64,000 bases of DNA from an uncultured Acidobacteriaceae bacterium (GTDB lineage Bacteria; Acidobacteriota; Terriglobia; Terriglobales; Acidobacteriaceae): positions 58,669 to 122,668 of the forward strand of contig CAYTIL010000025.1 of the NCBI GenBank assembly GCA_964437985.1, in the 5' to 3' direction. The position numbers and the translations under genes are program-made. Of the stretch, positions 58,040-64,000 are shown piece after piece. The notes beneath the pieces are model-generated. The model was not told the origin of the DNA. It was given only the letters and a program-made list of their open reading frames with translations, and searched no databases. The first letter of the stretch is position 1, and each line of letters opens with the position of its first letter.

Positions 58040-58642
58040 ATGAGCACGCTGGGACAAAAGGCTGCGGCCGCGCAAACCGTTTCCATCCAGGAGTTCGTCG
58101 CCGGGCTGCGCCAGTTTCCGGAAGCGGCGTTTAGCGGAACCCGGACCATCCAGGACTACCTTGCGCAGCATCCCGTGGATCCCGCTTCGCTCACGCCCTA
58201 TCTGTTCTGGGACCGCCAGCACTACACCCGCAACCTCATCGACGCCACCCCGCTGTACGACCTCATCGCCATCTGCTGGGAGGCTGGACATCACAGCTCC
58301 ACCCACAACCATCGCGACCAGAACTGCTGGATGGCGGTGCCTATCGGCCGGCTGCTGGTGCAGAACTATCGCGTGCTCTTCCAGGACCTGAAGGCAGGCA
58401 AGTGCGACATCCGCCCCACCGACATCGTGGAGATGAACGCCGCCAACCCACTGGCTGTGAATCCCGCCGAGCCCGTGCACAAGGTCTATAACCCGCGCGA
58501 GTTCGGTGAACGCGCCGTGAGCCTGCACCTGTATTCCCGCCCTTTCGATTCCTGCGACGTCTACTCCGAAGAACAGCACACCTGCGGGGAGATCAAGCTG
58601 AGCTACAACTCGCAGTACGGCGAGGTTTGCAAGAAGGCATGA
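58040..58642 (+). CDS. Cysteine dioxygenase type I family cupin protein
   Basis: Cupin metal motif …GHHSSTHNHRDQNCW… and the conserved Tyr region of CDO/MDO-type thiol dioxygenases. Confidence 0.65.
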   Translation: MSTLGQKAAAAQTVSIQEFVAGLRQFPEAAFSGTRTIQDYLAQHPVDPASLTPYLFWDRQHYTRNLIDATPLYDLIAICWEAGHHSSTHNHRDQNCWMAVPIGRLLVQNYRVLFQDLKAGKCDIRPTDIVEMNAANPLAVNPAEPVHKVYNPREFGERAVSLHLYSRPFDSCDVYSEEQHTCGEIKLSYNSQYGEVCKKA

Positions 58643-58645
58643 TTG

Positions 58646-58817
58646 TTCACCACGGAGACACGGAGGCACGGAGAACAGCAAGTCAAAAATCAAAAGGCAA
58701 AAGGGAAAAGGGAAAAGGCAACAAGCCGCTGGCAATACGCCATGAACGAGGCAAGAGGTCTTCTCTTTTGCCTTTTGATTTTTTACTCTTGCCTTCTCCG
58801 TGCCTCCGTGCCTCCGT
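58646..58817. repeat. Long imperfect inverted repeat (~55 nt arms) around a ~57 nt centre
   Basis: Left arm ttcaccacggagacacggaggcacggagaacagcaagtcaaaaatcaaaaggcaaaaggg. The right arm reverse complement is attcaccacggaggcacggagaaggcaagagtaaaaaatcaaaaggcaaaagag. It is A-rich, which is atypical for this genome, and lies between the CDO-like gene and the ABC ATPase gene. Confidence 0.65.
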
Positions 58818-58875
58818 GGTGAATCGTGACTCGCGAACTTTTGCCCCCGTTTCTGCGTAGTACCATCAGATAGCT

Positions 58876-59595
58876 ATGCCTGCCAACGGCGCTGCCATCC
58901 GCACCGAAGACGTCCGCCGCCACTACCGCATGGGCGAAGCCGAAATCCGCGCCGTGGACGGCGTGACCCTGGAAGTTCCCTCGGGAGAATTCGTGGCCCT
59001 GCTGGGCACTTCCGGATCGGGAAAGTCCACGCTGCTGAACCTGATCGCCGGCCTGGACCGGCCCACCACCGGCTCCATCGTGGTGCACGGGCGCGACCTG
59101 GCGAAGATGTCGTCGCTGGAGCTGGCCGAATACCGCCGCCACACCGCCGCCATGGTCTTCCAGGCGTTCAACCTTATTCCTTCGATGACCCTGCAGCAGA
59201 ACGTTGACCTTCCGCTGCGCTTCGCCGAAGTGGAGCGCCGCGAGCGCGAGCAGCGGGTGCGTGACGCCCTGGAGCGCGTGGGCCTGGGCGGGCGCAGCGG
59301 CCATCGCCCCAGCGAGCTCTCCGGCGGCGAGCAGCAGCGGGCATCGCTGGCGCGGGCGCTGGTGAACCGCCCCTCGCTGCTCCTGGCCGACGAGCCCACC
59401 GGTAACCTCGACAGCCGCACCGGCGAGGAAATCATGGGACTCATCCGCGACCTCAACCAGTCGCTGGGCATGACCGTGGTGCTGGTGACTCATGAACGGC
59501 CGCTGGCCGAGCGTTTCGCCGGCCGTTTCCTGTTCATGTCCGACGGCAAACTGGTGGCCTCGGAAGGCGCCTCCTCCCGGGGAGCACAGTCATGA
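58876..59595 (+). CDS. ABC transporter ATP-binding protein (MacB/LolD-type)
   Basis: Walker A GTSGSGKST, signature LSGGEQQR, Walker B LLLADEPTGNLD. Confidence 0.9.
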   Translation: MPANGAAIRTEDVRRHYRMGEAEIRAVDGVTLEVPSGEFVALLGTSGSGKSTLLNLIAGLDRPTTGSIVVHGRDLAKMSSLELAEYRRHTAAMVFQAFNLIPSMTLQQNVDLPLRFAEVERREREQRVRDALERVGLGGRSGHRPSELSGGEQQRASLARALVNRPSLLLADEPTGNLDSRTGEEIMGLIRDLNQSLGMTVVLVTHERPLAERFAGRFLFMSDGKLVASEGASSRGAQS

Positions 59596-60950
59596 AGGCA
59601 CCCGACCTGTTCGATCTGGCCACCCGCAATCTGCGCCAGTCGATGCTGCGCAATTCGCTGACCACGCTGGGCATTGCCGTGGGCGTGGCCTCGCTGGTGG
59701 CCATGCTGTCGCTGGGCATCGGCTTGCAGGAAATGGCCGGCCGCCGGCTGCAAAGCTCGGGCCTGTTCGACACTATCTTTGTGACTTCGCGCCAGGACTT
59801 CCGCGGCGTGGAGCGCGACGAGCCGCGCAAGCCGGCGGAGGATGTCCGCTCGCTCAACGACGCCGCCCGCACCCAGCTCCGTCAGCTCGACGGCGTGATT
59901 GAGGTGTTTCCGGAAATTCGCCTCACCACCGAAGCGCGCTACGAGGGCAAGATGCACTTTGCTTTCGTGGCCGCGCTGCCGCCCTCGGCACGCGAGAACG
60001 AAGCGTTTGAGACCCTCCAGGGATCGTTCTTCTCCGGGCCCGTGGCCGAGGAAGCCATCCTTGCGCAGGAGTTCGCCAAGGAACTGAGCCCGCAGCCCGC
60101 TTCGCTGCTGGGCAAGGAGATCGTGGTGCGCTACGCCGAGCGCCAGCCTCTGGCCGGCGGCGACGGCGCCGCTGCTGCCGGCGCCCAGAGCGCGAACGAC
60201 GACGACGACCCCTTCGGCTTCACCGTGGTACGCCGCGATCAGAAGCTGCGCATCGTGGGCATCGTGGAGCGCGAGCCCTTCGGCGGCGTGCGCGCGGTTT
60301 CCTCGGCGCGCATCTTCCTGCCCACCGGCCTCGCGGAAAATCTGAACGTCCTGCAGTTCTCCGACCTGCGCGGCGCCACCCGCTCCAGCAAAGAGCGCAC
60401 CTACGTGAGCCTGGCGGTCCGTGTGGACAGCCCGGGGCGCGTCGAGGAAGTGCAGAACGCCATCAAGAAGATGGGCTTCCGCACCTTCTCGGTTTTTGAC
60501 GCCGCCCGCAACCTGCGCCGCTTCTTCGCCGTGCTCGACCTGTTCCTCGGCATCTTCGGTAGCCTGGCGCTGGCGGTGGCGTCGCTGGGAATTGTGAACA
60601 CGCTGGTAATGGCCATCCTGGAACGGCGCCGCGAAATCGGCATTATGAAGGCCGTGGGCGCCTCCGACGCCGACGTCAAGCGGCTCTTCTTCGTCGAAGC
60701 CGGAGTGATGGGCGCATTCGGCGGAGCATTGGGCGTCCTGCTGGGCTGGGCCCTGGGCCGCTCCATCAACTGGGCAACCAACCTCTACCTCGCGCGCCAG
60801 CAGCTTCCCCCGGAGCAGATCTGGTCGGTGCCCTGGTGGCTGGTGGCCGCGGCCCTGGGCTTCGCGGTTCTGGTCAGCCTGGTCTCCGGACTCTATCCCG
60901 CGGCGCGCGCCTCGAAACTCGATCCCGTGCAGGCCCTGCGCTATGACTAG
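59592..60950 (+). CDS. ABC transporter permease (FtsX/MacB family)
   Basis: N-terminal TM segment, a large periplasmic MacB_PCD-like domain, then a C-terminal FtsX 4-TM bundle (…LVMAILERRREIGIMKAVGAS…). It overlaps the ATPase gene by 4 nt. Confidence 0.85.
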   Translation: MKAPDLFDLATRNLRQSMLRNSLTTLGIAVGVASLVAMLSLGIGLQEMAGRRLQSSGLFDTIFVTSRQDFRGVERDEPRKPAEDVRSLNDAARTQLRQLDGVIEVFPEIRLTTEARYEGKMHFAFVAALPPSARENEAFETLQGSFFSGPVAEEAILAQEFAKELSPQPASLLGKEIVVRYAERQPLAGGDGAAAAGAQSANDDDDPFGFTVVRRDQKLRIVGIVEREPFGGVRAVSSARIFLPTGLAENLNVLQFSDLRGATRSSKERTYVSLAVRVDSPGRVEEVQNAIKKMGFRTFSVFDAARNLRRFFAVLDLFLGIFGSLALAVASLGIVNTLVMAILERRREIGIMKAVGASDADVKRLFFVEAGVMGAFGGALGVLLGWALGRSINWATNLYLARQQLPPEQIWSVPWWLVAAALGFAVLVSLVSGLYPAARASKLDPVQALRYD

Positions 60951-60963
60951 CGCTGCCGCCTGC

Positions 60964-61884
60964 ATGTCAAAAAATCGAAGGATAACTGCGGTCTCCAACC
61001 CTCTGATGTCGTTCTTGTCATTTTGCATTTTTACTTTTGCATTGTGCCTTGCTCCTTCCGCCCACGCCGCCTCCAGCGCCGAATGTAAAACGGTGAAGAG
61101 CGCCATCCTCAAGCGCGCGGTGCGCTACTGCGCGCTGCTGCCCGCCGGCTACGCCACCGACAAGACGCGCCGCTTCCCGGTCCTCTATTACCTGCACGGG
61201 CTGGGCGCGGATGAGCAGTCCCTGGTGCGCAGCGGCGGATGGAACCTGGTAGAGAGCCTGCAGGAGGAGAAACGCATCGGAGAATTCGTCCTGATCACGC
61301 CCGACGGCGGCCGCAGCTTCTACATCAACTCCCGCGACGGACGCCTGCGCTACGAAGACTTCTTCCTCCGCGAGTTCCTGCCCGCCATCGAAAAGCGCTA
61401 CCGGGTGCAGGCGGTGCGTGCCGGGCGCGCCGTGGCAGGAACCTCCATGGGCGGCTACGGCGCGCTGCGCCTCGCCTTCAAGTATCCTCAGATCTTTTCC
61501 GCGGCCAGCGCGCACAGCGCCGCGCTCATGGAAAAGCTGCCGCCGGGCGCGGGCGAAACTCCCGGACTGGGAGGCAGCCGCGGCTGGATCCTAGGCGATG
61601 TGTTCGGTTCCCCGTTCGACCAGGCCTTCTACGACCGCAACAGCCCGCTCGCCCTGGCCAAAGCAGGAGCCGGACTGTCGCGCGTGAAGATTTACTTTGA
61701 CTGCGGCCGCGACGACGAGTACGGCTTCGACGCCGGCGCCGAGAAGCTCCATCAGGAGCTGAACTCGCGCCGCATTGCCCACGAATTTCACATCTACCCC
61801 GGCGGACACAGTTGGAGCTACGTGGCCGAGCATCTGGACGAATCGCTGGCGTTCCACTCGCGGGCCTTCGGGCTGACTCGATAG
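60964..61884 (+). CDS. Alpha/beta hydrolase, esterase family (esterase D/putative esterase PF00756-like), secreted
   Basis: Signal peptide …FCIFTFALCLAPSAHA. The GTSMGGYGAL nucleophile elbow and the FPVLYYLHG motif are present. The start is uncertain (60964 or 61006). Confidence 0.7.
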   Translation: MSKNRRITAVSNPLMSFLSFCIFTFALCLAPSAHAASSAECKTVKSAILKRAVRYCALLPAGYATDKTRRFPVLYYLHGLGADEQSLVRSGGWNLVESLQEEKRIGEFVLITPDGGRSFYINSRDGRLRYEDFFLREFLPAIEKRYRVQAVRAGRAVAGTSMGGYGALRLAFKYPQIFSAASAHSAALMEKLPPGAGETPGLGGSRGWILGDVFGSPFDQAFYDRNSPLALAKAGAGLSRVKIYFDCGRDDEYGFDAGAEKLHQELNSRRIAHEFHIYPGGHSWSYVAEHLDESLAFHSRAFGLTR

Positions 61885-61941
61885 CTCCAAGAGCACTTCA
61901 GCGGAAGTAGACTGGCATGAGTCTCAGATACCCTCGGCCCA

Positions 61942-63258
61942 CTAGATGGCCTTCGAGCACGCCACGAACACTTCGTCGAGAAACGCCTTACACCGCCTGA
62001 AGTTCCACCACGTGTCGGTGAGCGGATGAATGTAAACCCATTTACCGTTCAGCTCGACTAGGATGACATCTTCCATAAGTGTCTCTCGCTCGTAACGAGC
62101 CATTCGAGCGTTCGAGCGCAGCGTGTCTCGAAACTGGTCGCGTGCCTGACCGGGCGGGAAAAGACCCAAGCACCGATCAAGTCCAGCTTTGCGGATATCA
62201 TCATCTAACTCATCCACAGTTGGTTCGTGATCGGGCTTTTGAACCACCTTTCCCGGTGTCACCATTCCGCGATGCGCGGTGGTATGTCTTACGGTCGCTA
62301 CCCGATTAATAAATTCCGTGTGGGCTGGATTCTCGAATACAGCGTAGACCTCGGGCGATTTCGCTCGCAGGGCTTTCAGAAACTCTGGGCTTCTAGCACC
62401 AACCCGCCTTGAGGGTATTCCCAGGCCCAGCAAGCCACTTACTAGGACCGCAGCGTGGTCGAATGCGCCATACAGCAACAGATAATAAAAGTTTAGGTAG
62501 TAAGCAATTTCAGACGAGAACTTCTGCCGTTTCCATTGGGCACGCCTCGATACCGCCTGTTGCATCTCGTAGAAGAGCAAGCGATCCCGAGTAAAGGAGA
62601 GGTCACCTAGTCGGTTGTAAACCAGCGAACGCCCGGCCTCAACAGCCTCGGAGTCTGCGCCCTTTGTTTGACACAACGCCAGGAACTCCATTCCGGGCTT
62701 GAAGGTCCACGCTTCTGACAGCTGATAGGAAGCGGTCCAGGTGGTGAACCACGCTTTGTATGCAAATGCCCAAGGTACGTCGTGACCTCTCACGAATATT
62801 TCCGAGTACCGGAGCACGAAGTCAGGAGTGGTTAGCAAGAGGCCTAACTTCTCGAATTCTCTTATGTAGGGAAGCCACTCAGCGGCATCGGTTACTACGC
62901 AATCGGCGTCGCACGCTAGCGCCGTAGCCGCAACAATTTGTAGTTGGCCATCAAGCTGGTCCCGGATGGCCGTACCGATCGTAGAAATATCGGTGGACTT
63001 TGTGATTGGTGTCACATCAATGCCGATGCCGCGCATTATTGAGATCCCCATTTCATCGTCCGCGGGGATGAAAAGGTGGATCGAACAAATCGGTGGCTGA
63101 AAGTGGTTAAGGTACGCACGCAACTGCTCGAGCTCGTCGAATAGAACCAGGTTCTTCCGGTCCTGAGGTGAGGTCAGCCACACCAATACATCGAGAGACC
63201 GTTTTGTTCGTCCTGCATCTTCAACCTCGGGGATTATCCTTCCACGGACAAGCGGCAA
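61942..63258 (-). CDS. Hypothetical protein on a low-GC insertion; C-terminal region has an R-x4-H (HEPN-like, R[NH]xxAH) motif
   Basis: 438 aa ORF. The local GC is about 53% against about 67% in the flanks (estimated by eye from stretches such as ataataaaagtttaggtagtaagcaatttcagacgagaac). The motif FINRVATVRHTTAHRG resembles the HEPN/Abi_2 signature. No other family was recognised. Confidence 0.5.
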   Translation of the reverse strand: MPLVRGRIIPEVEDAGRTKRSLDVLVWLTSPQDRKNLVLFDELEQLRAYLNHFQPPICSIHLFIPADDEMGISIMRGIGIDVTPITKSTDISTIGTAIRDQLDGQLQIVAATALACDADCVVTDAAEWLPYIREFEKLGLLLTTPDFVLRYSEIFVRGHDVPWAFAYKAWFTTWTASYQLSEAWTFKPGMEFLALCQTKGADSEAVEAGRSLVYNRLGDLSFTRDRLLFYEMQQAVSRRAQWKRQKFSSEIAYYLNFYYLLLYGAFDHAAVLVSGLLGLGIPSRRVGARSPEFLKALRAKSPEVYAVFENPAHTEFINRVATVRHTTAHRGMVTPGKVVQKPDHEPTVDELDDDIRKAGLDRCLGLFPPGQARDQFRDTLRSNARMARYERETLMEDVILVELNGKWVYIHPLTDTWWNFRRCKAFLDEVFVACSKAI

Positions 63259-63264
63259 GTATTG

Positions 63265-64000
63265 TCACCTCGCTCTCGCGTTATCGGCTTGCTCCGTCGT
63301 GGGCGCCCGCAGCGGTCGCAAGCGGCGCTCCTCCTGTACGGCGCGCAGCGCCTCGATCACGAAGATCACGGTCAACCCCAGCAGCAGCACTGCCACCACG
63401 CCGTTGATGAGCACCGGGTCCCAGCGCAGCCCTGCCCTCCGCAGTGCGGCCAGGCCTTCGCCAGCCTGCACCACCAGCGCGCTGACGGTGACGGTCATCA
63501 GGAACATCATGGGCAGCAGGGTGTACCAGCAGCGGCGGCCGCTGCGGTACAGCCACACGCTCACCGCCAGCAAGGTGAGCGACGCCAGCAACTGGTTCGA
63601 GGTCCCGAACAGCACCCAGAAACTGCGCCACGAGCCTTCGCCGGAGGAAAGCAACACCACCAACGCGAGGCCGGCGGTGACCGCGGAGGCGACCACTCGC
63701 GCGGCCCGTCCGAAGAATGGTCCCAGCAGCCCGCCCGCCAGTTCCTCGAGCAGGTAGCGGCCCAGGCGTGTGGCTACGTCGAGCGTGTCGAAGACGAACG
63801 TGGAGAAGGCCATGGCGCCGAAGGTGACGGCGAAAATACGCCACTGCTCTCCGATCAGCACGGTCAGAAACGCGGCCACGCCGTCTCCGTAGAGCTTGCC
63901 GGGCGCGCGCCCTGCCACATCACCGGGGAGCACGATCATCACGGTGCTCAGCGCGATCAGCGCCACCAGTCCTTCCAGCAGCATGGCCCCGAAGCCAATG
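63265..64000 (-). CDS. cstA: Carbon starvation protein CstA, C-terminal part (gene continues beyond the window end)
   Basis: A polytopic membrane segment with a CstA-type LFGTSNQLLA region. The ORF is open at the window edge. Confidence 0.55.
   Translation of the reverse strand, partial: IGFGAMLLEGLVALIALSTVMIVLPGDVAGRAPGKLYGDGVAAFLTVLIGEQWRIFAVTFGAMAFSTFVFDTLDVATRLGRYLLEELAGGLLGPFFGRAARVVASAVTAGLALVVLLSSGEGSWRSFWVLFGTSNQLLASLTLLAVSVWLYRSGRRCWYTLLPMMFLMTVTVSALVVQAGEGLAALRRAGLRWDPVLINGVVAVLLLGLTVIFVIEALRAVQEERRLRPLRAPTTEQADNARAR

Follow-up and report, generated by a model that had tools for sequence, protein, structure and literature searches.

We found that a foreign, solo gene stands between an esterase gene and cstA in the window, that is, the whole 64,000-nucleotide stretch of DNA from an uncultured Acidobacteriaceae bacterium (contig CAYTIL010000025.1) that was analysed here. 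The gene encodes a protein in which a PIN-like domain precedes a domain of HEPN type, and this arrangement appears, from the sequences of its relatives, to be the fixed two-domain architecture of a small family. Horizontal acquisition of a HEPN-type ribonuclease (RNase) is very likely. The wider reading that we favour, in which the insertion, the membership in a PIN-like/HEPN family and the action of the HEPN RNase in a conflict role all hold together, is rather probable.

Insertion at the esterase-cstA junction

The inserted gene is flanked by the genes of an esterase (PF00756, E 1.5e-31) and of CstA (PF02554, E 5.5e-26), and further upstream of esterase and cstA lie genes for FtsX/MacB, an ABC ATPase and cysteine dioxygenase (CDO). 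The closest esterase orthologues (85%, 78% and 78% identity) are found on contigs L020, L021 and L022, which share with the window the gene order CDO-ABC-FtsX-esterase-(junction)-cstA-tricorn-like protease. The junction is gene-free in two of these contigs, where it measures 85 or 99 bp (L020 9012-9096; L021 9090-9188). In the third (L022 9023-10749), it is occupied by two unrelated genes, one for a PD40 beta-propeller protein of 394 amino acids (aa) and one a 138-aa open reading frame (ORF). Since the cargo of L022 is different, the site is variable, and since the closest syntenic relatives lack the inserted gene, it is dispensable. The preliminary description of this DNA had proposed a recent horizontal acquisition and suggested looking at the orthologous junction in relatives; with two empty sites and one differently filled, the acquisition is borne out. 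What it had called a hotspot amounts to one junction that varies across three relatives and is not demonstrated to be a defence island. The guanine-plus-cytosine (GC) fraction of the L022 cargo is about 0.60, for a value of 0.625 over the L022 locus.

By blastn, homology between the window and L020, L021 and L022 stops at 61877-61879 and resumes at 63302-63304. The CstA proteins agree up to RPLRAP, after which the window tail reads TTEQADNARAR and those of the relatives read FAEGAGD, SAVAGD or FAAGAGD, each followed by the stop codon (3' end of cstA, 63265-63300; C-terminus ...RPLRAPTTEQADNARAR in the window, ...RPLRAPFAEGAGD or similar in the three relatives). This new cstA tail also bears the ribosome-binding site of the inserted gene. 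The empty junctions of L020 and L021 consist of long, nearly perfect AT-rich inverted repeats (for example AAAAGGCAAAAGG... and its complement), which fold into hairpins of -32 and -37 kcal/mol by RNAfold, as against -10.2 kcal/mol for the spacer of the window, and which look like bidirectional terminators. Between L020 and L021 the sequence of the hairpin differs and its structure is kept. By these comparisons, the insert of about 1.4 kb replaced the terminator hairpin together with the last ~7 codons of cstA, which is why the new gene lies directly behind cstA. The elements of the locus are as follows.

61880..63300, no strand: inserted segment of ~1.4 kb, delimited by the blastn breakpoints, the divergence of the CstA tail and the GC drop
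61885..61941, no strand: 57-bp spacer from the convergent esterase gene to the inserted gene, with a weak hairpin only (RNAfold -10.2 kcal/mol)
61942..63258, minus strand: ORF of the inserted gene, 438 aa from a TTG start, predicted PIN-like + HEPN protein
63268..63271, minus strand: ribosome-binding site GAGG, 9 nt upstream of the TTG and within the end of cstA, read from the sequence

The composition of the gene sets it apart from its surroundings. Its GC is 0.537, compared with 0.644 in the left 10 kb and 0.675 in the right flank, and the shift is abrupt at both ends, at the very points where homology to the syntenic relatives stops and resumes. The deficit of about 14 points with abrupt limits that had been described earlier is confirmed, with a measured value of 11-14 points. 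Relative to 606 segments of the same length (mean 0.649, standard deviation 0.019, minimum 0.605), the gene has z = -6.0; it has the lowest GC of the window, where no other segment of this length falls under 0.605. At third codon positions, its GC (GC3) is 0.60 versus 0.80-0.87 in five neighbouring genes. Another drop, short and to a GC of 0.52-0.55, was observed at 58500-58950, in the intergenic region between the CDO and ABC ATPase genes. Low GC alone is insufficient proof of a recent event, because it is a property of the whole family, as is typical of accessory or mobile genes. Indeed, the family gene lies 1.6-12 points below its flanks in 64 of the 67 loci with enough flank, and it keeps its own composition (0.47-0.54) regardless of the host (flanks 0.48-0.61). 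It is the comparison with the empty sites that proves the insertion.

No integrase or transposase was found in or beside the insert, and a repeat search around it failed to detect the terminal repeats, inverted or direct, that typically mark an insertion sequence (IS) or transposon. The segment is too small to hold a second gene. At the left junction, an imperfect 20-nt direct repeat (16/20, 80%) connects 61854-61873, at the end of the esterase gene, with 61939-61958, which overlaps the stop of the inserted gene; it could be insertion microhomology or chance.

The TTG start of the inserted gene is located at 63256-63258 and the cstA stop at 63265-63267, leaving a gap of 6 nt. Full-length homologues measure 435-440 aa, which supports the 438-aa ORF, and they keep the N-terminus MPxVRGR (MPLVRGR in the present protein). 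The long ORF is correct because the N-terminus encoded from the TTG is conserved among the homologues. For the same reason, the NCBI record P0001, whose protein is identical to the product of the inserted gene over only 369 aa (84% coverage), truncates the N-terminal domain; its start was evidently called at the internal Met70, with loss of the first 69 codons (63052-63258). A scan of the locus for promoters and terminators gave nothing exceeding shuffled expectation. No Rfam family was detected in 60500-64000, and there is therefore no sign of an RNA antitoxin.

The two-domain protein and its family

A search of 5.8 billion proteins returned 156 relatives sharing 41-70% identity with the protein over its full length, almost all of them 435-440 aa long and all annotated as 'hypothetical'. 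An exhaustive profile search among 1.84 billion cluster representatives gave 319 proteins at E ≤ 1e-3, many of which are fragments; the complete members of the family are nearly all 400-460 aa long and match along the whole profile. Within 185,579 species genomes, the family was found at 11 loci, ten in metagenome-assembled genomes (MAGs) of Acidobacteriota/Terriglobia and one in a Janthinobacterium MAG (25% identity). Sequence searches of the PDB, whether started from the protein alone or from two profiles, produced noise only (calmodulin, DEK, an antibody chain). The alignment of 41 sequences of 41-70% identity contains 46 invariant columns. As measured on these alignments, a full-length two-domain protein is maintained by strong purifying selection, and the strongest constraint falls on the canonical HEPN catalytic dyad. 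The parts of the protein are given below.

61945..62082, minus strand: C-terminal extension, residues 393-438, modelled as a beta-hairpin (393-410) and a helix (416-437)
62083..62661, minus strand: predicted HEPN domain, approximately residues 200-392, with core helices 203-240, 248-276, 311-330 and 371-392
62272..62289, minus strand: predicted catalytic Rx4H motif R324-H-T-T-A-H329, from translation and conservation
62755..63258, minus strand: N-terminal alpha/beta domain, residues 1-168, with a predicted PIN-like fold, ending in E153-x-F-x-R-G158-H-D-x-P-W

The AlphaFold2 (AF2) model of the full protein has a predicted local distance difference test score (pLDDT) of 90.8. In this model, R324 and H329 are positioned at the C-terminal end of helix 311-330, the third core helix of the C-terminal half, and inserts are predicted between helices 2/3 and 3/4. 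The motif, contained in the segment INRVATVRHTTAHRG (residues 317-331), is the one to which the preliminary description had drawn attention. The protein contains three Rx4-6H strings, and such a string alone is not significant; only the one formed by R324 and H329 counts, and it carries weight because it is invariant across 61 relatives. R324, H329 and R330 are invariant in the close alignment, and when 61 sequences down to 17% identity are considered, invariance is limited to the columns of G158, R324 and H329. Over these 61 sequences, the motif has the consensus R-[H/N/D]-x-x-A-H, with H in 40, N in 18 and D in 3 at position 325 and A328 kept in 57. Helix 248-276 contains conserved acids, D267 (59 D and 2 E) and E250 (45/61), and P412 of the C-terminal extension is present in 57/61.

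According to Anantharaman et al. (2013; PMC3710099), helix 3 of HEPN domains ends with the Rx4-6H motif, whose arginine is followed by a polar residue (N, D or H); helix 2 contributes an acidic residue, and inserts separate helices 2 and 3. In the C-terminal half, core helix 3 likewise ends with the motif, its R is followed by a polar residue and helix 2 holds a conserved acid. Profile searches point in the same direction. When the 41 aligned relatives were scanned singly at E ≤ 1, which gave a complete list of 20 families, 30 of them matched PF18730 (HEPN_Cthe2314; best E 4.8e-6) and 9 matched HEPN_LA2681, while no further family recurred in more than 4. The Abi_2 assignment made earlier did not hold: no Abi_2 match was obtained for the protein at E ≤ 10, nor does Abi_2 figure among the families of the 41 relatives. 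We consider the C-terminal half to be of HEPN type, a predicted assignment for which motif, position and profile matches together make the case, not a fold match alone.

The N-terminal domain (residues 1-168) is modelled with a pLDDT of 91.6 and shows the three-layer alpha/beta/alpha arrangement of the PIN fold. Its best structural matches are PIN proteins, the top one being Nmd4, a degenerate PIN, and no CARF protein is present among the top 60. That this region forms a separate alpha/beta domain had already been supposed, and the structural matches now make it PIN-like. No PIN profile matched the protein or any of the 41 relatives. The canonical first aspartate, D23, is not conserved (R16/D12/N9/K9 over the broad alignment) and the acids D41, E42 and E44 of helix 1 are variable; only D119 and E153 are kept, each in 57/61 sequences, alongside the conserved linker motif E-x-F-x-R-G158-H-D-x-P-W. 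A role as canonical PIN nuclease was rejected on the ground that the acidic tetrad is not conserved, and because this tetrad is not kept we read the N-terminal domain as a PIN-like module that is probably non-catalytic and would serve in binding, sensing or gating. We also rejected an RNase P reading, prompted by HARP RNase P as the best Foldseek match of the full model, because this match falls short of significance (E 0.13) and conservation of the acidic residues is lacking.

Genomic context and proposed role

We compared the neighbours all-against-all in 77 homologue loci from genomes and metagenomes, which form 56 non-redundant groups (L001-L091). Mobile or conflict-type neighbours are scattered among them: a tyrosine integrase directly upstream of the family gene (L011), IS1595 (L006), a ParE pair (L004/L009), GIY-YIG (L019) and a type II methyltransferase. 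In some loci, the family gene is located at synteny break points. A conserved adjacent antitoxin, of the HEPN-MNT or another two-gene toxin-antitoxin (TA) type, does not recur in the 77 loci. In 4 of the 56 non-redundant loci, large mutually similar proteins lacking a Pfam or PADLOC match are encoded within 3 kb of the family gene, at varying distance and orientation (L013 11353-14322, L023 2660-5890, L045 5223-7880, L054 1-1242); they could be a loosely associated family or reflect low-complexity similarity.

A distant relative, P0290 (656 aa; L023 6001-9844, also L024), possesses an extra C-terminal AbiU2-like HEPN domain (E 5e-5, just below the cut-off). Its gene immediately precedes a PycC-like (Pycsar) cyclase gene (E 7.8e-16), which is followed by a gene for an unannotated protein of 238 aa, and it is surrounded by small unannotated ORFs with an Xre-type helix-turn-helix. 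P0290 itself has no PADLOC match. The locus may be a composite defence locus.

In the mechanism that we propose, about 1.4 kb of foreign single-gene DNA would have entered a high-GC genome of the Terriglobales (Acidobacteriota) at the junction of the esterase gene with cstA. The HEPN domain of its product would be a metal-independent endoribonuclease, probably needing dimerisation to build its active site, like other HEPN enzymes. The degenerate PIN-like domain, with its E153...G158 linker motif, would act in cis by binding RNA or a ligand or by gating the RNase. On this view, the protein would have no need of a separate antitoxin or partner. The likeliest role is in a conflict system, as an abortive-infection-type (Abi-type) defence or as a regulated toxin. 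Anti-phage defence taken by itself is possible, if somewhat short of an even chance. The only positive hints of it are the AbiU2-like fusion beside a Pycsar-type cyclase and the few integrase, IS and TA neighbours. We put forward more tentatively still, as somewhat unlikely, that the family is a self-contained single-protein abortive infection system of soil Acidobacteriota, in which the dead PIN-like domain would sense a cue and release the HEPN RNase; it might then be a bacterial counterpart of the PIN+HEPN protein Swt1.

Several results weigh against a HEPN RNase in a conflict role. No relatives were found in phage or plasmid records by tblastn or in IMG/VR viral contigs by scanning. The protein has no match in NCBIfam, PHROG or PADLOC; for the last, which the preliminary description had recommended searching, PADLOC-DB v2.0.0 returned 0 families at E ≤ 10. 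The match of the protein itself to PF18730, over residues 241-332, has an E value of 0.19 and 12.1 bits for a cut-off of 27.1, and Foldseek searches of the PDB with the full model gave nothing significant (best E 0.13). In the genomic context, neighbour families are each confined to at most 4 of the 56 non-redundant groups and no partner gene recurs. The neighbours are mostly housekeeping, metabolic or unknown genes, and most neighbourhoods are devoid of defence genes. One lineage, represented by 3 groups, keeps the family gene at a fixed position between aminotransferase and dihydroorotase-like (DHOase) genes, which looks like stable vertical inheritance; no other arrangement is repeated.

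Some of these features would suit the main rival, a nuclease for stress or RNA turnover: an accessory RNase, unconnected with immunity, that would process or degrade cellular RNA in starvation or stress and be expressed by read-through from cstA. The position of the gene, 6 nt after the cstA stop with its own GAGG and no room for a promoter, fits such an enzyme, as do the predominance of metabolic genes around its homologues, the lineage with the fixed position and the missing PADLOC match. The coupling to cstA is, however, specific to the insertion in the window and is not seen at other loci. The rare and patchy distribution (11/185,579 species genomes; 319 representatives), the systematically foreign-like GC, the absence of the gene from the closest syntenic relatives and the AbiU2/Pycsar-linked relative P0290 also argue against an accessory RNase, which we regard as unlikely. 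A selfish toxin or a mobile-element leftover bringing no benefit to the host, kept by addiction or not yet lost, is less probable still and would be a poor bet. It would account for a single foreign gene unaccompanied by mobility genes and for the relatives that adjoin an integrase, IS1595 or a ParE TA pair, but not readily for conservation over the full length, with 46 invariant columns in 41 sequences, nor for a catalytic motif invariant down to 17% identity; moreover, no antitoxin-like partner recurs and no plasmid or phage copies were found.

Two other explanations concern the catalytic assignment and the insertion itself, and both seem very improbable to us. The C-terminal helical domain could be a non-catalytic binding module, its R...H pair serving to hold a ligand or nucleotide as in the HEPN domains of nucleotidyltransferases. 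Yet no side chains other than those of R324 and H329 are invariant in the family, the arginine is followed by a polar residue of catalytic type, and binding-only HEPN domains have typically lost the Rx4-6H motif (PMC3710099), which counts against this explanation. Alternatively, the gene could be ancestral at the junction, with no recent transfer, a low GC intrinsic to the family and loss in the relatives. The family-wide GC deficit, which includes the loci of conserved synteny, is in its favour. It would nevertheless require at least two precise deletions, each restoring a terminator hairpin and the shared CstA tail that are absent from the window, and the third relative carries unrelated cargo; in addition, a GC3 of 0.60 versus 0.80-0.87 indicates no amelioration. 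An inserted HEPN RNase in a conflict role remains the reading that we prefer.

Should the protein prove to be an active, self-regulated HEPN RNase, it would represent a new family and a new pairing, of a degenerate PIN-like domain with a HEPN domain, among single-gene conflict or defence effectors. Such an effector would belong to the Acidobacteriota, a phylum of major importance in soils whose immunity has hardly been studied. The finding opens no long-standing question, and it is common for HEPN proteins to be predicted without a known role. The locus is a very clean natural single-gene insertion, with empty and alternatively filled sites in close relatives, and is useful for studying gene movement that proceeds without recognisable mobility machinery.

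Comparison with known systems

The HEPN clade to which the family comes closest is that of the Cthe_2314-like proteins (PF18730), the only family that recurs in the profile scans, over the region from helix 2 to helix 3 including Rx4H. Both are bacterial, have a conserved Rx4-6H motif and have no known partners or function (PMC3710099, Table 1). For this clade, neither architectures nor operon partners emerged from the 2013 survey (PMC3710099), and no functional study of it was found in the literature searched. The family described here differs by its fixed PIN-like N-terminal domain, its C-terminal extension of hairpin and helix, and its almost exclusive occurrence in Acidobacteriota. Its sequences relate it to the curated PF18730 but place it outside that family's gathering threshold (27.1 bits).

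The sequence evidence does not make the protein a demonstrated member of Abi_2, of the VapC-type PIN nucleases, of HEPN-MNT, of RnlA/LsoA or of CARF-HEPN. RnlA/LsoA and the HEPN-MNT toxins are each countered by an antitoxin of their own (RnlB, the phage protein Dmd, MNT) and have other N-terminal domains, whereas no partner recurs beside the present family. The CARF-HEPN proteins (Csm6/Csx1) differ in their N-terminal domain, which in our protein is PIN-like and has no CARF match. No CRISPR or cyclase neighbours were seen in the examined loci, except for the PycC-like gene beside the distant relative P0290.

In its general organization, the protein resembles the solo Abi HEPN proteins (AbiD/AbiF = Abi_2, AbiU2, AbiV, AbiJ), which are single-gene, horizontally mobile and combine a HEPN RNase with a family-specific N-terminal domain. 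In these proteins the N-terminal domain has been proposed to sense infection, and P0290 is fused to an AbiU2-like HEPN domain. A difference is that neither the protein nor its 41 close relatives match an Abi profile, and that PADLOC gives no match. The eukaryotic protein Swt1 shows the same domain order, a PIN-type domain and then a HEPN domain, an architecture for which Anantharaman et al. proposed, speculatively, an origin in a bacterial defence system (PMC3710099). The likeness is one of domain order; the HEPN domain of Swt1 belongs to the Abi2/Swt1 clade. Moreover, the activities are apparently reversed: the PIN domain of Swt1 is described as an endoribonuclease and its HEPN domain is thought to be inactive, whereas in the inserted-gene family the PIN-like domain appears dead and the HEPN motif is invariant. 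Set beside these systems, the inserted gene probably encodes a new variant of solo HEPN RNase, for which a role in conflict is plausible.

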